This document shows, piece after piece, positions 295 to 54,537 of a stretch of 55,905 nucleotides of DNA. Numbering within the stretch: the stretch's first letter is position 1; the number at the start of each line of letters is the position of its first letter. The DNA is taken from the IMG/VR virus record IMGVR_UViG_2698536580_000003, positions 1-55,905 of that record, one strand, 5' to 3'. The notes under the pieces were generated by a model that saw only the letters and a list, made by a program, of their open reading frames with translations, did not search any database and had not been told where the DNA came from. Made by a program: the position numbers and the translations under genes. This stretch comes from a virus (taxonomy: Duplodnaviria > Heunggongvirae > Uroviricota > Caudoviricetes).

Positions 295-855
295 CAAGTG
301 TTTAAATGGAATAACCTCTGATTCTATATCAGGATTAATACATGAAATAGCGGTAAAATAACATGCCATTTTGTAATAGTTTTCCAAATGTAAACCAGTA
401 CATTCTAAAAACTTATCTTTATAATATAATTCATCATTCAAGCAATACCAAATATACTGTCTTGTTAATGAATTGGCATTAAATTTATCAGTTGATTGAT
501 AAAGCAACTGATTTATCACCATTCGTCTAAGGCTTAGCATAACTTTATCATCAACGATTAAATTAGATGCTTCTAGTTGCAAGTTATAGATTAAGTTGAT
601 AATATCAACAAAATCATTTTTACTCATTTCTTTTGCAGGCTTTTTTTCCTTCATGCAAAACTTCCATTTCATTGCCAGATAGCAACACCAAGGGAAATTG
701 GAAACAATACCCACCTCGACATCCCTTACTTTTTGGAAGTGTTCATAAAAATTTCTCAAAAAAGAAACATCACTAAAATATGACAATCTTTTCTTAATCG
801 CATCAACTTTTATAGAATATGACACTGGTGTCATTGTTTTTATTGCCACGCTCAT
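295..855 (-). CDS. hypothetical protein, 3' end interrupted by the IS1 insertion
   Basis: ORF 214..855 with AAGG-type RBS; frame runs into the IS1 terminal repeat so the native C-terminus is lost or replaced; AT-rich; no motif recognised. Confidence 0.45.
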
Positions 856-1457
856 AAAAAACCTTTTATGATAAACATAGAGAAATATTTTATTTAAAAA
901 TTATCAAATACACGTTAATAAATATACATTTTTTAATTTTGCGTGCAACCCTATCCCCAATCAATACAAAATATTGTGCACACAAAATTGAAGAAGCCTA
1001 TAACTATAGGTGCCTACTGACACCTATCAAGAAACTTGTTCACCCCCGACACAATTTAATTTGGCGTAGCTCACAATGTTCTCCTCAGCACACCTACCCC
1101 CCACTTTATAGGACAGTTTTCATGCAGTACATGCATAAACAAAAGCTCATCAGTTCTGGTGGTTCCTCACCACGAACATGCAGATAATACCTCAAAACAT
1201 CATGTAACAATGTTGGCATTACGCCACCAGCCACAAAAAAGCCCTACCCTTAGGCTTAATGTTTGGCTTGGCTGTTGGCTTACTATAACGCCCCGCTCAC
1301 CGTCGCAGCCTGTTCGGTTTCCGCCACTGATACGGCCTCACATCATCATGCTGATAGATGTCGACGGGCTACCAGTACCATTTGCTCACCAACCCCATAT
1401 TTTCCATGTTAATCTTCTCTTTCCACATGCTTTGTATGGTAATAAGCAAAAGGAAAA

Positions 1458-1715
1458 ATGATGAACACTAAGGTGAAAGAAGCAGTAAAATGTTGGGCTT
1501 CTAGTCCAACGTGGTTTAGCAGGCATCCAATGGATACGGCGGAGTTCCGACGGGCTGTTTCAAATCTCAAGCGCATTACCCCTACCCCATCTTTCGAAGA
1601 AATCAAAGAAGCGATCATGTTCTTTGTTTCCGATGCGCCAACAATGCTAGGTACGCCGTCGGATATTCCTCAGGCGGTTCATGACTTCGCTGGAAAAATT
1701 TATAACAAGCTGTGA
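1458..1715 (+). CDS. hypothetical small protein (85 aa)
   Basis: ORF with AAGGA RBS (aaggaaaaATG); followed by hairpin. Confidence 0.4.
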   Translation: MMNTKVKEAVKCWASSPTWFSRHPMDTAEFRRAVSNLKRITPTPSFEEIKEAIMFFVSDAPTMLGTPSDIPQAVHDFAGKIYNKL

Positions 1716-1742
1716 GCAAAATGCGGGCTATCCCAGCCCGCA
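1714..1742 (-). terminator. putative intrinsic terminator hairpin between convergent genes
   Basis: Perfect 7-bp stem GCGGGCT/AGCCCGC (1723-1729 / 1735-1741) with 5-nt loop; T-run follows on minus strand. Confidence 0.5.
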
Positions 1743-1749
1743 TCCCTAA

Positions 1750-1959
1750 TTAACGCCGTAACTTGTTTGGCTTCGTCCATTGGTACGCCTTTTCGTTTTC
1801 CCGCCGCTGGTGGCGTTCCTGTTGCAGCACAACGGAAACAGGCGCTGAACACCTGTTAATTTTGCTTGCTGGTTGTTTGATTCCGGCAATGCTGCGGATC
1901 ATCTCCAGCATATCGGCTTCGGTGATGGTCATAGGTTTCCTATCAGCACTCATATCCAA
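1750..1959 (-). CDS. hypothetical small protein (69 aa)
   Basis: ORF directly downstream of 1982..2566 in same orientation; ends before terminator hairpin. Confidence 0.4.
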   Translation of the reverse strand: MDMSADRKPMTITEADMLEMIRSIAGIKQPASKINRCSAPVSVVLQQERHQRRENEKAYQWTKPNKLRR

Positions 1960-1981
1960 TTAATAAGTTCAATACAATGGA

Positions 1982-2566
1982 TTATCCCGTTTTAGTGACT
2001 AACCATTGCAGAATAACGATAATTAAATATGTTAATGTGCCAGTTCCAAGAAGTATTAATAATTGATAGCAACGTAGGGCAATATTACTAATCGATTTTT
2101 GCATCACGATATTCACTGGCTCAGCCACACACTCTTTAGATCTTATCGATAGAATACTTGGAACTTCTCTATTTATTGATAATATTTCACATTGAATAGA
2201 CTCACCAGGTGCAAGGCTTTCAAACTTGATAATATAGCGACCATCCTGTTCAATATTTTCTTCAAAATGGTGGACAGGCCAAAAATTAATATGCATTGGC
2301 TTATAGTTAAAAACCAATGAGATATTAGTAGCACTTTCTCGCCCTTCATTAACAAGAATAATAGATCGTGTATACACCAACTGTGAATTAGATATTACCT
2401 CACCATTGGCATTCCGTAAGGGTTCATTGAGAAGAAAAGTAAATCCATGCTGATAACCATAGGATAACTTTGCCTTGCTTTTAAATCTGTTATTCAGTAT
2501 CCATGTTAAAATCGTTATAAAAAAAGAAAATAGTTCTTTCCCATAAAGACTAAAAAAACTCATCAC
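1982..2566 (-). CDS. hypothetical membrane protein (N- and C-terminal hydrophobic segments)
   Basis: 194-aa ORF; hydrophobic stretches FFITILTWIL and LLILLGTGTLTYLIIVILQWLV; AT-rich. Confidence 0.5.
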   Translation of the reverse strand: MMSFFSLYGKELFSFFITILTWILNNRFKSKAKLSYGYQHGFTFLLNEPLRNANGEVISNSQLVYTRSIILVNEGRESATNISLVFNYKPMHINFWPVHHFEENIEQDGRYIIKFESLAPGESIQCEILSINREVPSILSIRSKECVAEPVNIVMQKSISNIALRCYQLLILLGTGTLTYLIIVILQWLVTKTG

Positions 2567-2685
2567 ACATTTCCTTCAGTAATCTGATTCTGCTGTCAAA
2601 GCTACCAGCACTATAGTCATTCATCCACATTGCGACAAGAAGGTTACAGCACGTCCAATCACACCTTAGGAAATCTTAGGGGGCT

Positions 2686-2960
2686 GGTTGACACTTTCCG
2701 GCTTAAGACCTTAATAAATCTTAATATCGCAGGTTGACACACTTGACACTTTTTCGCGAAAAACCTTAGCATTTCTAAGCATGGCAACTTGACATTTTTC
2801 GCGGTTTTTTCGGCTTTTTGACGTGGTAAATCTGGCACAAACCCAGTAATTGCGGGGCTTACAGCGAGGTTGACACTTTTTCGCGTTCAGAGTGTAAAGT
2901 GTCAACCTGGCAACCTGGCAAGCTGGCAAGCTGGCAAGCTGCTCAACTTGACACTTTTTG
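2686..2960. repeat. array of about 7 copies of GTTGACACTTTTTCGCG-like motif, plus a 12-bp perfect inverted repeat and a (CTGGCAAG)n octamer tandem tract
   Basis: TTGACAC at approx 2688, 2733, 2742, 2788, 2817 (variant), 2869, 2948 and inverted at 2897; GGTTGACACTTT / AAAGTGTCAACC inverted pair 2868-2879 / 2897-2908; octamers 2906-2942. Confidence 0.75.
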
Positions 2961-2963
2961 ATG

Positions 2964-3509
2964 TCATTGATGGTCTGATTTTTCCCACTCAGCCAGGGCG
3001 TTTAACCCGGCTTCACTCCATGATTCCGGTTCATCGGGATAATCACCTGCAACATAGCAGAGTTCGCAACGCAGCATACGAATTGCCAGCCTGGCATTAC
3101 CTCGCAAATTGTATTTTTCAAAGTAATGCTGCCCTTCATCATCCTCAAGGCAGATAGCACCATCATCAAGAAAGTGCACTTCCCAGCCTAATTCCCCGGC
3201 TGCATACAGCACACGCTGCTGTATGCCCTCGTCCGTTACTGGCGCAGGAATTTTACCGTCTCTGGCCTTAACTGCTTTCCAGAACTCGCCCCATGTCATT
3301 TCCAGCGTTCTTTCTGGCCACATTTCAGAAATGGTGTCTTTCCCCTGTGCTGGTGGGCTGTTCCGCTGCTCTGTCGCTTCCACATCAATTTTTTTACCGG
3401 ACATGACCACTTCGCCTTTCTCGAGCCAGTCGTAAACTGTCTGGCGGCTTACGCCTTTGTATTTGGCGTATTCGGCTTTACTCATCAACATGTAGCTCAC
3501 CTCATGCAT
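2964..3509 (-). CDS. HTH DNA-binding protein with acidic C-terminal domain (function unknown; possibly packaging or regulatory)
   Basis: N-terminal KAEYAKYKGVSRQTVYDWLEKGEV helix-turn-helix-like segment; start codon uncertain (several Met near N-terminus). Confidence 0.55.
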   Translation of the reverse strand: MHEVSYMLMSKAEYAKYKGVSRQTVYDWLEKGEVVMSGKKIDVEATEQRNSPPAQGKDTISEMWPERTLEMTWGEFWKAVKARDGKIPAPVTDEGIQQRVLYAAGELGWEVHFLDDGAICLEDDEGQHYFEKYNLRGNARLAIRMLRCELCYVAGDYPDEPESWSEAGLNALAEWEKSDHQ

Positions 3510-3590
3510 ATACGATAAAAAATAATTTCATGCGGAAAGGGAATGCGTTGTGGGTATGGAGGAAAGGGGCAATAACCGCCCCTTACTGAT

Positions 3591-3863
3591 TCAGTTGCGC
3601 CAGGATGGCTGGCTAAGCGTGGTTTTCATTACATCATTGACGACCTGTTTTACGATTTCTGTGTTGGCAGTCGTGCTTTCAACATCAACAAAGCCATAAT
3701 CGCCAATTTCCACCGTCAGGGATTCCAGTTTCTTCCCTAGAGCATCAGGCAACTCTCCACTGAACCGATGCTGAAGATTTTCCACCAGCAACGCCCTGAA
3801 TGCCTCGCTGTTCTCTTTTTTCTGCCATAGCTGGCGTTTATCCACTCTGATATTTAATTTCAC
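3591..3863 (-). CDS. hypothetical protein (90 aa)
   Basis: ORF overlapping upstream small gene by 4 bp. Confidence 0.45.
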   Translation of the reverse strand: MKLNIRVDKRQLWQKKENSEAFRALLVENLQHRFSGELPDALGKKLESLTVEIGDYGFVDVESTTANTEIVKQVVNDVMKTTLSQPSWRN

Positions 3864-4027
3864 AGTCTCACCTCTTTAAGTGCCTTATCCATCAGTTGCC
3901 GAGCGATAACATGAATCGACGGTGCCACACCAAGCACAGATTTCTGACGCTCTTCGTCCTGGATGCGTTGCAGGGCTTCGATCTGCCTCCGGGAAAGTAA
4001 AACTGGCTTTACTCCGTGATTTTTCAT
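3860..4027 (-). CDS. hypothetical small protein (about 55 aa), start trimmed from ORF 3860..4189
   Basis: Internal Met MKNHGVKPVLLSRRQIEALQ... preceded by AGGGA RBS; upstream part of the long ORF is Cys-rich and not protein-like. Confidence 0.4.
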   Translation of the reverse strand: MKNHGVKPVLLSRRQIEALQRIQDEERQKSVLGVAPSIHVIARQLMDKALKEVRL

Positions 4028-4295
4028 GATGATCCCTTCTGAATGACAATAATTGCAATTATTGCACAAATTGAAATGATACCAGAGACAATTGCAATAA
4101 ATGAAACGAAAAGCATCAATAAACCAACCTTCGGCACTGAATGCTCTGATTTTTCTGCAAAGGTATGGCAGATGCAAACATAAAGGCAATAGCAGAAGAA
4201 GCAGCGGGGAGTGAAAAGGGGAAGTTTTTATAAATACACGATTGTCGCCTCACTGCAGGTTAACAGCCACAAGCTCCATGATAATAACTTGTTAA

Positions 4296-4619
4296 TTATT
4301 TCATCAGATTTTTCATTATTTGCGCGATTGAGTACACAAGCAAAAACTCGGCAGCCGCAAGAGTATAAAAAACATAAATTCGCTTAGCCCACCGACGATG
4401 AAAGAACTCCTCAGCATGGCCGGATGTTCGAGATACAAGCCATGCACCTACTGCACACAGAGCAGGTGCAATGAGCACAGTTATAAACCAGATTGTGATG
4501 CCCATCCCATGCCTACTGATAATAGCCATTGGTATTGCAAAAATGAATGTTAGAGCAGCATTAGCTAATAGAATATCTTTTAAAGTATTTTCAATTAGTT
4601 TTGCTAGATTATCTTTCAT
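4296..4619 (-). CDS. small integral membrane protein (107 aa)
   Basis: Multiple hydrophobic helices (ALTFIFAIPMAII, ITIWFITVLIAPALCAVGAWLV, FLLVYSIAQIM). Confidence 0.55.
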   Translation of the reverse strand: MKDNLAKLIENTLKDILLANAALTFIFAIPMAIISRHGMGITIWFITVLIAPALCAVGAWLVSRTSGHAEEFFHRRWAKRIYVFYTLAAAEFLLVYSIAQIMKNLMK

Positions 4620-4683
4620 CTAATCCCCCACGTTGAACATTAATATATAAAAGCCCCTTACTAAGGGGCTTTGCACGGATTGT

Positions 4684-5826
4684 TTAAAGGGAACTTTTTT
4701 TCGCCCCTTCAATTTCTGCCTGACAAATTTCGTCATTTGTAAATGAGTACTGCAGATAGACATATCCCTGAGTGGAATTGTTCGCTCTGGCCTCAATAGA
4801 TATAGTATCAATATTGTTTTTTAATGGTATTTCTTTTGTTCCCTTCCATGTGGCAGATAAGAAGCGTTCTTTTTTGTTTAGCCCCCTCATCCAGTCCTGA
4901 GGATCTTTCCAAATTGAACCAGCCAGCAAAAAGTCTGTAGTATCAGCCTTTCCATACAGAGAACTTAAAGAATTACTCAATTCTTCAAACTTGGATTTAA
5001 GAGCCAATCCATAGCTATCAGTATCAATATTTTTTCCTAAAGCCCGTATTTGACATAAACCAGCTTTCGGGGAGATCAGCAAACCATACATTTCAAAATC
5101 TGCGTTTTGCTTCGGTAATTTATCAGAAGTATACAGATTCACACTGTCTGGTAGTGGCTTGAGCTTAGCACCGATCATATCTTCGATGTTTTTCTGTGTA
5201 AGACCGGCTTCTAAGCCAAACGGACCATCCGCTGGCGGGAGTAAAGGAAGTTGCTCTTGGGAATTTTTGGCTGTTACTTCCGTTTCAGTACTGTTTTTTG
5301 CGTCATTAGCTTGTACTGATGCCAGCTTAACTTCAGCGAGGCCATACTTGGCTGTGAGGTACTTTTGCTGCAACATTGCCATGGTCTGCTCTTCAGTGGC
5401 AACAGTAGATAATTTTAGTACCTTTATCAGACCACCACTATACTGACGAGCATCAGCTTTGGCTTCGTTGATTTTTGCATCTAAGCTGTCAATTTCAGTT
5501 TTAATTGAAGCCGCAAGCTCAGGATCAGGTTTTACTCCAGATACAACAACATCAATTTTGGCACCTGATTCAATAGCATTAATACGCTGTTCCAAAAGCG
5601 CTTTATTAGTTCCTAATATTTCCAGTCTTGCTGTTGTCAGATTTTTTATCAACCCACCAGAAAACTGCTGGTCAACTTCCTTAGCTGCTGATATTTCACC
5701 TTCCGTTTGCGACAGTTCAGCTTTAAGAGCAGCTACTTCCTGTTTCTGTTCTGGAGTTAACTCTTCTGGCCCACATCCGGTTAACATTACTATACCGACT
5801 AATGTTGCAATTAAAGTTTTATTCAT
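4684..5826 (-). CDS. lipoprotein with coiled-coil region and internal QYSGGLIK / QFSGGLIK repeats
   Basis: Signal peptide with lipobox LTGC near N-terminus (MNKTLIATLVGIVMLTGC); 380 aa. Confidence 0.7.
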   Translation of the reverse strand: MNKTLIATLVGIVMLTGCGPEELTPEQKQEVAALKAELSQTEGEISAAKEVDQQFSGGLIKNLTTARLEILGTNKALLEQRINAIESGAKIDVVVSGVKPDPELAASIKTEIDSLDAKINEAKADARQYSGGLIKVLKLSTVATEEQTMAMLQQKYLTAKYGLAEVKLASVQANDAKNSTETEVTAKNSQEQLPLLPPADGPFGLEAGLTQKNIEDMIGAKLKPLPDSVNLYTSDKLPKQNADFEMYGLLISPKAGLCQIRALGKNIDTDSYGLALKSKFEELSNSLSSLYGKADTTDFLLAGSIWKDPQDWMRGLNKKERFLSATWKGTKEIPLKNNIDTISIEARANNSTQGYVYLQYSFTNDEICQAEIEGAKKSSL

Positions 5827-5960
5827 ATCCCTATTCCAAATGAAAATATTCAGATTAATCTTATCAGGAACCCAGATGCAATTGAATATTCATCTGCTCA
5901 GCAACGTAGTAGATTTCCTCAGAAAGCATCAACAAAAAACCAAGAGAATCCCATCCTCTG

Positions 5961-6248
5961 TTACTGACTACAATTGTTCTTTTTTTGGTATTTCCTGAAT
6001 GCCTCACCATTGGGCTGATGTAATCCCATCCCGGCATGTGCCCGGCTGATGGTTTCGCGCATCTCCCCGAAATTATCCTGCCTTGCTGGTGGGCGTGCTG
6101 CCTTGTGGATACATTCCGCGCGACGTTTTGCCGCCTGTTCCCGTGCCTTGTCATCATTCGCCAGCATGATGACCTCAGCCCACCGCGCCGCCGCTCTCCG
6201 GTACAGACCACGCGCTTCCAGTGCTTCCGCTTTGCTGTCGTGAATCAT
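5961..6248 (-). CDS. PerC-family transcriptional regulator (start set at internal Met to give ATGA overlap)
   Basis: Motif LEARGLYRRAAARWAEV resembles PerC/Pch signature as recalled. Confidence 0.55.
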   Translation of the reverse strand: MIHDSKAEALEARGLYRRAAARWAEVIMLANDDKAREQAAKRRAECIHKAARPPARQDNFGEMRETISRAHAGMGLHQPNGEAFRKYQKKNNCSQ

Positions 6249-6787
6249 GCGCCTATTGTCTCCTTTGCTGCCCGGCACTGGCGTTTGCGCTTCTCATTCA
6301 GCGCCACCAGCCGCGTTTCTGCGTCCTGTTGTTCCTGTGGTGTCACCTCGCCGCACGGCTGGCCTTTCAGGTCGTAGCGTACCCCACCAGCCATTAAGGC
6401 GCGGTAATAGCGCGGACACTGCGCATAAGATGCCAGCGTCGCACGCAATGCCCCTGGCCCGAATGCCAGCCCCCTGGCGGCGAGATCCTGCATCAGGTCG
6501 TCGAATATCCCCACCTTAAGCGGCTTCAGTGCTTCCCGGCTGAATAAGTCAGGCCACAACTCAGTGAGGCGGTTAACGCGCCTGCGGTTTTTGCGCTGGC
6601 GTTTGGTCATATGCCGCCACGGTGTCGCCCCTGTAGGCTTCTGCTGCGCTTTCTGGTTACCGGGCATCACTTTATGCGCCGATGTGGTTTTATCCTGCTC
6701 CTGTGCCGCCTGCGTCGTTTTCTGCGGCGTGCCGTAAATACCTTTTGGTTTTCTGTTAATGGTCAGCTTAGTCATGCTTTGCCCCAT
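6245..6787 (-). CDS. ProQ/FinO-domain RNA-binding protein
   Basis: Segment LWPDLFS...PLKVGIFDDLMQDL...LRATLASYAQCPRYYRALMAGGVRYDLKGQPCGEVTPQEQQDAETRL parallels ProQ N-terminal FinO domain (PLKIGIFQDL...LRSALRLYTSSWRYL...RVDLDGNPCGEL) as recalled. Confidence 0.7.
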   Translation of the reverse strand: MGQSMTKLTINRKPKGIYGTPQKTTQAAQEQDKTTSAHKVMPGNQKAQQKPTGATPWRHMTKRQRKNRRRVNRLTELWPDLFSREALKPLKVGIFDDLMQDLAARGLAFGPGALRATLASYAQCPRYYRALMAGGVRYDLKGQPCGEVTPQEQQDAETRLVALNEKRKRQCRAAKETIGA

Positions 6788-6795
6788 CGTTACAA

Positions 6796-7132
6796 CTGTC
6801 TACCAACTGTCTACCGATATAATTGATTGATTTATTTAATGTTATTAACACATAACAAAAAAACAATCTGCAAACTGTCTACCAACGGTCTACCGCATTA
6901 ATACATTGATAATTAATGATTTTTACTAAATGGTAGACAGTGTAGACAGTTAAAAGAGAAATTTAAAAAATGCCCCCTTAACTATCTGTTTTTTATATAC
7001 CCCCCGTGGTTTAGGAATATAGAAATAACTGTCTACCTCTCTACTACATTGAAAATATCTTTATAATTCAAAATATTAATTGGTAGATGGTTGGTAGAGG
7101 GTTAAGTGAATCTGTCTACCAACCGTCTACCT
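6796..7132. repeat. iteron cluster, putative satellite replication origin (ori/crr-like)
   Basis: At least 10 copies of CTGTCTACC / GGTAGACAG (direct and inverted) at 6796, 6808, 6875, 6886, 6932, 6941, 7029, 7082, 7093, 7112, 7124, interspersed with AT-rich tracts, immediately downstream of the primase gene. Confidence 0.65.
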
Positions 7133-7158
7133 TTACGTTTCAGCTTATAAATTTCGTA

Positions 7159-8964
7159 TTATGTTCTGTCGTTAATCCCTGTAGCTGCTGGCAACCAGCC
7201 ATCAGCATCATCATCTAACAGAACATTTGTTATCACTCGCCCTTTATCCGGGCCTTTAGTGCATTTAGCCCGCTTATACTCCTTTCCGTATTCCGCCATA
7301 GCTCCTGGCATATCAGTACCAAAGCGTGTCAGTGATACTGGTTTTCCCAGGCCATGCGCTGACATATAGGCTAAATAAGCATGATACAGGTATCGCCTCG
7401 GGCTAAATGGCACTATTTCCGCATTGCCCACCATCATTCCTTCACATTTAACCAACGACATCAGATAGCCGCAAAAGTCCACCAGTGAATCACCTTCGCG
7501 CTTTATCAACAGCGCTTCTTCTGATTTTTGCTGCTCATAAAGTAGTCTTTTAGCTTCGTCCTGGTCGGTAAATCGTGTTAGCAAATGGCGAATCACTACC
7601 GCCAGTTCGCCTTCTATCTTTTCCGCCAGCATGGGATCGCGTTCGTTCTCCGGTACGACCTCAGAGAAATTAAATATCACCCTACGACGCGAGATCCCCC
7701 CGCTTCGGTCACTGAATGACATGGCGTTATTGTTTACCGCAAGCACTACTGCCGGAATACGTGTGGAGTAGGGGGCTTTATGTTTCGGATCAATTGCCAC
7801 CTTGTCGCCGCCAGTAATTGCCTTAATTCCTGCACCATCGCCAGCGTAGCGAGTCATATCCGGCATGATAATCAGCGAAAAGCCAACTACTAACGCGCGT
7901 TCCCTTGCGTCTTCCAGAGCCTTCATGCTTGCCGATACTGTGTTGGCCTTACCCGCCAGCATGGTACAAATCTCAGCCATCACACTTTTACCGCTTCCGC
8001 CTGGGCCTGTTACCTCAAGGAATAACTGCCAGTCGTACCGGTTCGCCAGCACCATGAATAATGCCGCCAGTACGCGATCAGCTTTACGATCATTATCTGC
8101 CACCGAACGACGCAGCCACTTCCAGAAATTCGGCGCATGTGTTGCCAGCGTTTCCCCCTCTGCTGGTGGGCTGAACGGTAATTCACTGGCATTTAACAAC
8201 CAGTCATTTTTGTTATGCTCCCGAAAATTTCCCGTCCGGGTATCAAATACCCCGTTACTGAATCCAATAAGATTCCTGTCTGCCCCGCCCATAACAGGCA
8301 GGCTCAATTTCATTGTGTCTACGGCAAATTTAATGGCGTTTTGCGAATAACTGATTCCAGCATCAATAAAAATCTTCGCCATAGACCGCTGGAGTTCCTT
8401 ATCAGATACAGGCACCCAGACAATTCCGTTGTAATGGTGAACTACATCAGAATCATCATTTATAGCCAGTGCTCTTCCATAATATTCAAGTAACACTTCC
8501 CCTCTCTGGCTGGCTCCCATCTGATTTAGTGCTGGCCTAGATAGGTCAATATTTTTTGTGGCTAATTTCATCGCTGAAACTTCCCCACTCTCTGCCTGTT
8601 CGCGGATCCGTTGCAGGTAGTCGCGCCAGTTTTCCGGCTCCCGGTCGGTGATACCTTTGTATAATTTCGCGTCCTGTACACCAGCCAGCGCCAGCTTTTC
8701 AGCAATAGCATTGATCTGGATTGGCTCTATCTCCCCCGCGAGATAGACACGCGCAAAGCGGCGTTCATCGTCGACAATGCGGATATTCGCCAGGTCTGCC
8801 AGTTGCTTTGGCCCCAGGTAAACAGGAGGCACGTTATCGCCGTGTTTTCGTCCTTCGCTTTCAATCCAGTGTTGAGCATGGGCGTAAGCATCCGTCCCAG
8901 CAAAAATGATTACCTCGGTGAATTTATCCTTCGGCTGATATTTTAAATTCGGTGCGTTTTTCAC
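7159..8964 (-). CDS. P4 alpha-like primase/helicase (D5-type NTPase)
   Basis: 601 aa; Walker A TGPGGSGKSV; overall resemblance to satellite-phage primases. Confidence 0.8.
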   Translation of the reverse strand: MKNAPNLKYQPKDKFTEVIIFAGTDAYAHAQHWIESEGRKHGDNVPPVYLGPKQLADLANIRIVDDERRFARVYLAGEIEPIQINAIAEKLALAGVQDAKLYKGITDREPENWRDYLQRIREQAESGEVSAMKLATKNIDLSRPALNQMGASQRGEVLLEYYGRALAINDDSDVVHHYNGIVWVPVSDKELQRSMAKIFIDAGISYSQNAIKFAVDTMKLSLPVMGGADRNLIGFSNGVFDTRTGNFREHNKNDWLLNASELPFSPPAEGETLATHAPNFWKWLRRSVADNDRKADRVLAALFMVLANRYDWQLFLEVTGPGGSGKSVMAEICTMLAGKANTVSASMKALEDARERALVVGFSLIIMPDMTRYAGDGAGIKAITGGDKVAIDPKHKAPYSTRIPAVVLAVNNNAMSFSDRSGGISRRRVIFNFSEVVPENERDPMLAEKIEGELAVVIRHLLTRFTDQDEAKRLLYEQQKSEEALLIKREGDSLVDFCGYLMSLVKCEGMMVGNAEIVPFSPRRYLYHAYLAYMSAHGLGKPVSLTRFGTDMPGAMAEYGKEYKRAKCTKGPDKGRVITNVLLDDDADGWLPAATGINDRT

Positions 8965-53057: not shown

Positions 53058-53407
53058 TGGAGCCATACAGCCTCACACTCGATGAGGCCTGTCATTTTCT
53101 CAAGATATCCAGACCGACTGCTATTAACTGGATACGCACAGGGCGTCTTCAGGCAACACGCAAAGATCCCACTAAGAATAAATCTCCTTACCTCACAACA
53201 CGACAAGCCTGCATTGCGGCTCTTCAGTCTCCGCTGCATACTGTCCAGGTGAGCGCGGGTGATGGCATAACAGAGGAAAGAAAATGTCACTCTTCCGCAG
53301 AGGTGAAATATGGTACGCCAGTTTCACATTGCCGAACGGTAAAAGATTTAAACAGTCTCTTGGAACAAAGGACAAAAGGCAGGCGACAGAACTCCATGAC
53401 AAGCTAA
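53057..53407 (+). CDS. xis: excisionase (Xis, HTH), 3' end overlapping int
   Basis: ATG at 53057 with [39 protein letters not shown]. Confidence 0.6.
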
Positions 53408-54447
53408 AGGCTGAAGCATGGCGGGTCAGCAAACTTGGTGAAATACCTGATATAACGTTCGAGGAAGCGTGTGTCAGGTGGCTTGAAGAGAAAGCACATA
53501 AAAAATCACTGGACGATGACAAAAGCCGGATCGGATTCTGGCTTCAACATTTCGCAGGAATGCAACTAAGAGACATTACTGAATCAAAAATTTATTCAGC
53601 AATGCAGAAAATGACGAACCGGCGTCATGAGGAAAACTGGAAACTCAGGGCAGAAGCATGCAGAAAAAAAGGGAAACCTGTTCCAGAATACACGCCAAAA
53701 CCAGCGTCCGTTGCAACGAAGGCTACGCATCTTTCATTTATAAAGGCCCTACTAAGAGCCGCAGAGCGTGAATGGAAAATGCTGGATAAGGCACCAATTA
53801 TTAAAGTGCCTCAACCAAAGAATAAACGGATCCGCTGGCTGGAGCCCCATGAAGCACAAAGGCTGATTGATGAATGTCCGGAGCCATTAAAGTCTGTTGT
53901 TGAATTTGCACTGGCAACAGGCTTAAGACGCTCGAACATCATCAACCTTGAATGGCAACAAATAGATATGCAGCGCCGGGTGGCATGGATAAACCCGGAA
54001 GAGAGTAAATCAAACCGCGCAATTGGCGTTGCGCTGAATGATACTGCATGTCGCGTATTGAAAAAACAAATCGGGAATCATCACCGTTGGGTATTTGTGT
54101 ACAAGGAAAGCTGTACCAAACCAGACGGAACGAAAGCGCCAACAGTAAGGAAGATGCGGTATGACGCAAACACAGCCTGGAAAGCGGCGCTGAGACGGGC
54201 TGGTATTGATGATTTCAGATTTCACGACTTGAGACACACCTGGGCAAGTTGGCTGGTTCAAGCCGGAGTCCCGTTGTCAGTGTTACAGGAAATGGGAGGC
54301 TGGGAGTCTATCGAAATGGTTCGTCGATATGCTCACCTTGCACCTAATCACCTTACCGAACACGCACGGCAAATAGACTCGATCCTGAACCCATCGGTCC
54401 CAAATTTGTCCCAGTCAAAAAATAAGGAAGGTACTAATGATGTGTAA
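53284..54447 (+). CDS. int: tyrosine integrase (lambda-type placement, 3' end at att)
   Basis: 387 aa; catalytic box [39 protein letters not shown]. Confidence 0.9.
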
Positions 54448-54459
54448 CTTATTGATTTA

Positions 54460-54507
54460 AATGGTGCCGATAATAGGAGTCGAACCTACGACCTTCGCAT
54501 TACGAAT
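54460..54507. repeat. att direct repeat (within tRNA-Thr 3' half), partner of 15356-15403
   Basis: 48-bp identity to 15356-15403. Confidence 0.85.
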
Positions 54508-54537
54508 GCGCTGCTCTACCAACTGAGCTATATCGGC
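54462..54537 (-). tRNA. thrW: tRNA-Thr (anticodon CGU)
   Basis: Reverse complement reads GCCGATATAGCTCAGTTGGTAGAGCAGCGCATTCGTAATGCGAAGGTCGTAGGTTCGACTCCTATTATCGGCACCA, a 76-nt cloverleaf with CGT anticodon. Confidence 0.9.

Follow-up and report, generated by a model that had tools for sequence, protein, structure and literature searches.

Two distantly related PerC-family genes on a PICI-type satellite and an SfV-like prophage integrated at thrW

Main finding

The window analysed here, a 55,905-nucleotide stretch of viral DNA (IMG/VR record IMGVR_UViG_2698536580_000003), carries two genuine, distantly related members of the PerC superfamily, each standard to the mobile element on which it resides. 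We put the probability of this reading, which concerns the identity and the context of both genes, at about 0.8. The first gene, perC1, encodes a short stand-alone protein and lies on a satellite of the PICI kind integrated at thrW; the second is an orthologue of yfdN and lies in the early-right operon of an adjacent SfV-like prophage. The features needed to follow the argument are listed below in window coordinates.

5961..6248, minus strand: perC1, 95-aa stand-alone PerC-family protein of the satellite (Pfam PF06069; PHROG 994)
6245..6787, minus strand: ProQ/FinO-family gene (PF04352, E=2.5e-23), the stop codon of which overlaps the perC1 start (ATGA)
6794..7147, no strand: three iterons, AACTGTCTACCAAC(T/G)GTCTACC, between the primase and proQ genes (direct-repeat family D2)
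7159..8964, minus strand: satellite primase/helicase (domain matches to D5_N, DUF5906 and Pox_D5; P4-family primase C-terminal region)
11781..12629, minus strand: AntA/AntB antirepressor-family gene of the satellite (PF08346, E=7.8e-24)
12708..12905, minus strand: AlpA-family regulator of the satellite (PF05930, E=2.4e-19)
13977..15191, minus strand: satellite tyrosine integrase, adjoining the left thrW repeat (RefSeq label of a near-identical element; 96.5% identical to the EcCIMP1 integrase)
15356..15403, no strand: left copy of the 48-nt thrW-derived att core, at the satellite/prophage junction (repeat D3, 100% identical to 54460-54507)
45451..46137, minus strand: phage Dam methyltransferase, immediately downstream of yfdN (TIGR01712, E=3.4e-76)
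46104..46598, minus strand: yfdN orthologue of the prophage, 164 aa (Pfam PF06069, residues 100-151)
46595..47536, minus strand: O-like replication initiator of the prophage, the stop codon of which overlaps the yfdN start (phrog_391, E=1e-135)
54460..54537, minus strand: thrW tRNA-Thr(CGU), holding the right copy of the att core (ARAGORN, Rfam, repeat D3)

Results

Identification of the two PerC-family genes

Both open reading frames named in the original prediction, at 5961..6248 and 46104..46598, are present on the minus strand. The former encodes a 95-aa protein with the N-terminus MIHDSKAEALEARGLYRRAAARW and has an AAGGAG ribosome-binding site 5' of its ATG; the latter encodes a 164-aa protein that includes LESRGLYRRAATVW. 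A PerC profile search, which had been proposed as a check on the family assignment, placed both proteins above the gathering threshold of PF06069 (22.6 bits). The perC1 product scored 109.1 bits (E=1.3e-31) over profile positions 1-89 of 90, i.e., the whole domain in a stand-alone protein, and YfdN scored 36.1 bits (E=8e-9) over positions 5-56 only, which correspond to its residues 100-151. Coverage of the whole domain does not extend to YfdN, which is without the C-terminal half of PerC and has an added winged helix. Both proteins contain the PerC core LExxG(L/F)(Y/W)RRAAxxW ... R ... RR..C, and the signature residues from which the assignment was first made belong to the invariant core of the family, A7 E8 L10 E11 G14 R17 R18 A19 A20 W23 R36 R42 R43 C46, as found in an alignment of eight diverse members and also in 26 close relatives. 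A six-frame motif scan of the 55.9-kb window, combined with an HMM built from 26 homologues, detected exactly these two open reading frames (E=3.7e-48 and 5e-13) and no third PerC-family copy.

The two genes had been described as paralogues. Their membership of a common family stands, but close paralogy does not, as BLASTP aligned perC1 and YfdN at 38% identity over only 47 residues and their architectures are different. Profile-profile comparison of the perC1 and YfdN families by hhalign gave a probability of 98.1% (E=7e-14) over 56 columns. Judged by these alignments, perC1 and YfdN are distant relatives with different architectures, not recent paralogues.

With respect to names already in use, the perC1 region occurs in 329 of 5426 complete E. 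coli genomes, and RefSeq calls the gene “PerC family transcriptional regulator” in every such genome listed. Along its entire length, its product shares 63% identity with a protein (P0052) named “PchABC family transcriptional regulator” by NCBI, and its N-terminus is 89% identical over 54 residues to a truncated 54-aa protein (P0108) source-labelled “PchE”. The latter was considered as the characterised PchE of O157:H7, and this equation was rejected because its DNA matched no O157:H7 genome among the best 12 records listed.

A shared three-helix module in two architectures

AlphaFold2 predicted three helices for perC1, at residues 5-13, 16-29 and 33-51, with a pLDDT of about 90; the C-terminal part was poorly predicted and contained one helix. 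The model of YfdN consists of a winged helix at residues 2-62 (helices 2-15, 21-27 and 33-46, and a β-hairpin at 49-62), a disordered linker at 65-85, and a three-helix unit at 92-107, 111-124 and 128-150, again with a pLDDT of about 90. The part common to both proteins is a three-helix module of approximately 50 residues (LExxGLYRRAAxxW...R...RR..C) and nothing else; the module is extended by the PerC C-terminal half in perC1 and by a winged helix of the DNA-binding type in YfdN.

The ANR model NF033650 matched perC1 with 14.9 bits (E=0.017) and YfdN with 23.5 bits (E=3.7e-5), both below the curated cutoff of 32 bits, and it was also matched below cutoff by 25 of the 26 perC1 relatives (best E=1.1e-5), over the shared module. 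The structure models together with these sub-cutoff matches point to an ANR-like/TPR-like helical module as the common denominator, and the predicted fold looks like a protein-protein interaction unit rather than a DNA-binding domain. A sequence search of perC1 and YfdN against PDB chains returned no match even at E<=10, so that neither has a solved relative.

The satellite and the ProQ/FinO-perC1 gene pair

The satellite genes run on the minus strand in the order integrase, AlpA, AntA/AntB, Icd-like remnant, DUF4222, D5/P4-type primase, iterons, ProQ/FinO, perC1, a 380-aa gene, and several small genes. An integrase, AlpA, a primase with an adjoining iteron origin and a specific att site were found together, without phage structural or lysis genes, as is typical of PICIs. 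The element is a thrW-integrated satellite of the AlpA-AntA-primase, PICI kind and a relative of EcCIMP1. The iterons at 6794-7147 are probably its replication origin, a putative assignment made because their location downstream of the primase gene matches that in PICIs. Profile searches recognised no packaging genes in the part of the satellite covered by the window, which begins inside an IS1 copy and does not include the satellite's left end.

In the sequence ATGA, the start codon of perC1 and the stop codon of the ProQ/FinO-family gene before it overlap, and the two genes likely form one operon. The GC content at 6001-6500, the perC1/proQ junction, is 0.62 and drops to 0.38-0.44 to the left and right of it, a contrast suggestive of a mobile cassette made up of proQ and perC1; the genes downstream of perC1 have a GC content of 0.36-0.43. 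Promoter and terminator scans around perC1 gave counts no better than those of shuffled sequence, and the sole strong terminator was located at 4672-4650, after the downstream 380-aa gene. An Rfam scan of the whole window detected tRNA only and no sRNA partner for the ProQ/FinO protein, and PADLOC gave no defence-system match for perC1, the ProQ-like protein, or the neighbouring satellite open reading frames.

The urine isolate E. coli K56-43-un has an element that matches window positions 295-15403 at 99.9% identity and lies directly against thrW and proA without a prophage. The satellite primase is intact in the window (601 aa) and is annotated as frameshifted in the K56-43-un element. Bases ~1-294 of the window are the end of an IS1A copy (99.7% identity; IS1A occurs in about 5000 E. 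coli genomes), and a 213-aa open reading frame at 214-855 on the minus strand is an N-terminal remnant of gapS1 (RefSeq: GapS1 family protein), a putative anti-phage gene. Because the match to the K56-43-un satellite begins only at base 295, inside gapS1, this gene is cut short by IS1 in the window. A further open frame of 512 aa at 10250-11788 on the minus strand has no Pfam match, and only its last ~50 residues match Icd-like/“transcriptional repressor” PHROGs. At this position RefSeq has just a partial Icd-like pseudogene and small plus-strand genes (YlcI/YnfO family), and the 512-aa frame should be regarded as putative.

The prophage and yfdN

The prophage is 39.1 kb long and is flanked by two perfect 48-nt direct copies of the 3' half of thrW, at 15356-15403 and 54460-54507, of which the left one adjoins the satellite integrase; the location of one PerC-family gene on a satellite and of the other on a prophage, as originally proposed, is borne out by this arrangement. 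At one end of the prophage are gtrA/B-type genes (15605 onward; RefSeq yfdG/yfdH in homologues), at the other its integrase (53284-54447). The cI gene (48774-49400) is on the plus strand, ahead of a minus-strand early-right operon with the order CII-like, O-like, yfdN, Dam, LexA-DNA-binding-domain-only protein, RusA, KilA-N, DUF968 and Q. The O-like protein is 100% identical to its counterpart in Shigella phage SfII, and its C-terminal region is 39% identical to lambda O. Four overlapping iterons of the CAGATTTTGACGGGT-like type (repeat family D1) lie with 15-nt spacing within the O-like gene at 47164-47238, which is the lambda-style arrangement with the origin inside the initiator gene.

The GTG start of yfdN overlaps the stop codon of the O-like gene. 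The 164-aa product corresponds to YfdN of the K-12 prophage CPS-53 and to SfV orf40 with 96-99% identity (96% for SfV orf40). This, together with the identity of the O-like protein to that of SfII, indicates that the prophage at thrW is a serotype-converting phage of the SfV/SfII-like kind. RefSeq names the gene “yfdN: PerC family transcriptional regulator” and it is present in 2733 of 5426 complete E. coli genomes, of all kinds. In the literature, yfdN has been termed “the K12 unique PerC homologue” (PMC5931665), and hits from over-expression screens alone have been reported for it (PMC2853380, PMC6206680).

A natural deletion of yfdN was observed in a deposited phage genome. In phage cdtI (NC_009514.1), the early operon is otherwise as in the prophage of the window, and only the first 26 yfdN codons are left (3501-3578), just ahead of and overlapping the dam start; yfdN therefore seems dispensable for this phage. 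Two other prophage genes deserve mention. The 108-aa protein at 45128-45454 (minus strand), in the nin-like region, has a LexA DNA-binding domain only, without an S24 peptidase domain, and is kept in SfV, mEp460 and the Stx2k phages. A 429-aa protein at 39829-41118 (minus strand), between the Q and lysis regions, has a DUF6575 match, a weak DUF7226 match and a weak PADLOC match to PD-T4-10_B (E=1e-7), and may be a prophage-borne defence moron.

Distribution of the short and YfdN forms

Short-form PerC genes were found at 18 loci in a one-genome-per-species collection, with Escherichia, Atlantibacter, Enterobacter, Shimwellia, Kluyvera, Lonsdalea, Pantoea, Erwinia and Chimaeribacter among the genera. 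Homologues of the AlpA, AntA, primase or integrase of the window lie upstream on the same strand in 13 of them, and PICI-like satellites with a short-form gene are thereby spread over the Enterobacterales, with Escherichia at one end of the range and Pantoea, Erwinia and Lonsdalea at the other. In E. ruysiae, E. albertii (L005) and a Pantoea (L016), the gene immediately before PerC is of the ProQ/FinO family; the pair is found in L004, L005 and L016. Such a pair was also found in three E. coli satellites (L025-L027) with another replication module, composed of an AAA_25 helicase and SSB, and the 4-nt overlap within the pair is the same in two of the three (L025 and L026). In the capsid-forming PICI (cfPICI) of O157:H7 PA20, the PerC gene comes right after the DUF927 primase and SSB genes and just upstream of the capsid genes. 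The three E. coli satellites each hold two PerC-family genes, namely one of 54 aa, truncated, that follows ProQ, and one of 98 aa close to the distal end (L025, 15294-15590; L026, 13835-14131; L027, 14671-14967).

The original prediction had suggested a survey of related prophages; the spread of the two forms across phages was obtained from 50,697 deposited phage genomes. The short form occurs in one of them, on a 1.5-kb fragment, and the YfdN form in 56, including SfV, SfII, SfIV, mEp460, ST64B and Stx2c/Stx2k phages; it follows the replication gene in all three phages for which the region was inspected. The locus and phage-genome counts thus partition the family, with the short form belonging to satellites and the YfdN form to true phages, and each PerC-type gene is part of the standard gene set of its own type of element. 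PerC variants on E. coli PICIs have already been described (PMC6092414, PMC11773190, PMC13612085), and genes for PerC and ProQ/FinO are listed as PICI accessory genes in Enterobacter (PMC13612085).

Adjacency of the satellite and the prophage

With the segment running from the satellite integrase through att to gtrA as query, 7 of 5426 complete E. coli genomes gave a match over at least 80% of its length, at 92-96% identity. This rarity, and the occurrence of a near-identical satellite alone, indicate that the two elements inserted independently at thrW and do not form a conserved pair. The integrases of the two elements are unrelated in sequence, the PerC module is the only protein similarity between satellite and prophage (E<=1e-4), and besides att no DNA repeat longer than 21 nt is shared. 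Nothing in the sequence therefore marks the prophage as a helper or the PerC pair as designed; the prophage was considered as the satellite's helper and rejected on these grounds. The proposal that two copies on neighbouring elements imply cross-talk is likewise unsupported, given that the satellite lies alone at thrW in the urine isolate and that such junctions are so few.

Discussion

Possible mode of action

A mechanism can be sketched by analogy with the better-known members of the family. Pch is without homology to known DNA-binding proteins and binds mostly inside H-NS-bound regions, and its activating effect on LEE1 depends on silencing of the promoter by H-NS/StpA/Hha (PMC4764244). Pch is for this reason a counter-silencer. 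ChIP was reported to place it at specific chromosomal sites, and no co-precipitation with H-NS was seen (PMC4764244), so that direct protein contact is a supposition even for the family members studied best. For the ANR proteins, PMC11773190 summarises binding to AraC-type activators and modulation of H-NS. By extension, the shared module would be a protein-contact unit that modulates H-NS-type silencing complexes or AraC-type regulators, and through contacts with nucleoid or regulatory proteins both products would change how genes that are AT-rich, H-NS-silenced or AraC-controlled are transcribed. The perC1 product would work on its own; in YfdN, the winged helix would serve to anchor the protein at particular DNA sites. 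We hold this protein-contact mechanism tentatively as the most likely one and give it somewhat less than an even chance. The direction of the effect (activation or repression) and its targets are not readable from the sequence. The fixed location of the genes beside replication modules could mean a role in the life cycle of the element, not in host regulation.

The last point leads to an alternative in which the PerC modules serve the elements themselves: upon induction they would de-silence or switch on the element's own AT-rich late, packaging or accessory genes, and effects on the host such as those on LEE would be a secondary exaptation. The conserved site after the replication module or origin in otherwise unrelated backbones (D5 primase; AAA_25 plus SSB; DUF927 primase plus SSB), the fixed place of yfdN in the early-right operon of SfV-like phages, the AT-rich genes downstream of perC1 (GC 0.36-0.43) and the counter-silencing action of Pch (PMC4764244) are all consistent with such a role. 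However, phage cdtI maintains the early operon with yfdN reduced to 26 codons, the PerC gene of EcCIMP1 is at the far end of the island, and PerC presence is variable among EcCIMP1-like elements (PMC11773190). We regard an element-intrinsic role as a reasonable alternative, though a rather unlikely one.

A second alternative takes perC1 as an anti-activator or repressor of the ANR type, which would bind and inactivate an AraC-family activator and/or H-NS. The matches to NF033650 by 25 of 26 family members and by YfdN fall exactly on the shared module; EcCIMP1_025, a PerC-like protein of EcCIMP1, represses LEE1-lux in Citrobacter rodentium, for which its authors propose an ANR-like activity (PMC11773190); and csgD is repressed by PchE (PMC6265319). 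The scores of 14.9 and 23.5 bits nevertheless fall short of the 32-bit cutoff, the conserved C-terminal part of perC1 (RPP...MG...FR) lies outside the 54-position ANR profile, and no AraC-family gene is located nearby in the window. Such a function for perC1 is conceivable, with the odds clearly against it.

Much less probable is the view, contained in the original prediction, that both proteins are PerC/Pch-type activators of virulence loci (ler/LEE) and that the neighbouring copies cooperate or cross-talk. Both exceed the PerC Pfam threshold, perC1 is 63% identical to the “PchABC family” protein P0052, and the group 1 Pch proteins act additively on ler (PMC6265319). In the literature, though, activation of LEE1/ler is limited to EPEC PerC and the group 1 proteins PchA/B/C, and PchD and PchE do not activate it (PMC6265319); under PchE, csgD and curli are repressed and flagellar expression goes up (PMC6265319, PMC7369912). 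LEE activation is restricted to group 1, and homology does not predict it (PMC6265319). The PICI PerC-like genes of EcCIEDL933 and EcCICFT073 had no effect on LEE1 fusions (PMC11773190), and EcCIMP1_025, which is 48% identical to perC1 and comes from an element at the same integration site, is the LEE1 repressor mentioned above (PMC11773190). K-12 carries yfdN and is without LEE (PMC5931665), yfdN is present in 2733 of 5426 E. coli genomes of all kinds, and YfdN does not have the PerC C-terminal half. The satellite-prophage pairing is rare, and LEE is not visible within the window. Activation of chromosomal virulence loci is thus a claim that the tested satellite-borne homologues and the LEE-free K-12 host of yfdN leave unsupported.

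Finally, YfdN as a replication accessory that stands in for lambda P and connects the O-like initiator with the host helicase is highly improbable. In favour of it, the start codon of yfdN overlaps the stop codon of the O-like gene before it, the origin iterons lie within that O-like gene, the C-terminal region of the O-like protein is 39% identical to lambda O, and the stretch between cI and Q yielded no P-, DnaB- or DnaC-like gene. Against it, phage cdtI retains the replication gene and dam without yfdN, a winged helix joined to a TPR-like module is unlike known helicase loaders, and the same module is present in stand-alone regulators.

Significance

The preferred reading, that of two genuine PerC-superfamily members each standard to its own element, amounts to the correct annotation of known gene types without new biology, as both genes are already annotated in RefSeq and described in E. 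coli. Mildly new, and descriptive, are the split into a satellite-type and a phage-type form, the recurring coupled ProQ/FinO-PerC pair, and the ANR-like/TPR-like shared module. The position of PerC after the replication module in unrelated satellites, the ProQ/FinO-PerC pair and the fusion of the module to a winged helix in YfdN may be of interest to specialists. For annotation in general, a caution follows: the label “PerC family” should not be read as “LEE activator” when the gene lies on a satellite or prophage, as the nearest relatives tested are inactive or LEE1-repressing.

A wider and speculative picture, which we consider unlikely as it stands, is that the PerC/ANR-like module is primarily a tool of mobile elements. 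The short form of satellites, often co-translated with a ProQ/FinO RNA chaperone, and the winged-helix-fused form of SfV-like phages would lift the silencing of their own genes, or time their expression, after induction, and the sharing of the module could let one element sense or mimic the regulatory state of the other. If the module were truly a general counter-silencing/anti-activator device of phages and satellites, the literatures on PerC, Pch, ANR and YfdN would be linked.

Comparison with known systems

The closest known system is EcCIMP1, an experimentally verified PICI of E. coli MP1 that is helper-induced and transferred (Pick et al., ISME J 2025, PMC11773190). It occupies the same thrW/proA site as the satellite of the window, its integrase is 96.5% identical, and AlpA and AntA homologues are present in both. 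EcCIMP1_025 is a 93-aa stand-alone PerC-domain protein, and its 48% identity to perC1 extends over 85 aa. The two elements differ in that the PerC gene of EcCIMP1 lies at the distal island end without a ProQ/FinO partner, whereas perC1 comes after the origin with ProQ/FinO, and in that EcCIMP1 has P22-like ejection-protein genes, which the satellite of the window does not. The repression of LEE1 by EcCIMP1_025 is a measured effect.

EPEC PerC (BfpW) and EHEC PchA/B/C share with perC1 the Pfam family, the size and the invariant core, and they too are found on horizontally acquired elements. The 63% identity of perC1 to P0052, labelled “PchABC family”, would place it near PchA/B/C, but RefSeq names perC1 just “PerC family”, and the subgroup placement rests on database labels. 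The ANR family (e.g., Aar of EAEC, NF033650) resembles both proteins in consisting of small helical proteins of enterobacterial mobile DNA, and the shared module aligns to profile positions 5-54 of 54; the differences are the scores under the family cutoff, the extra C-terminal half of perC1, and the extra winged helix of YfdN. For the prophage gene, the counterparts are K-12 YfdN and SfV orf40, which have the same neighbours as the copy in the window (O-like upstream; Dam, LexA-like and RusA downstream) and show no difference of substance from it.
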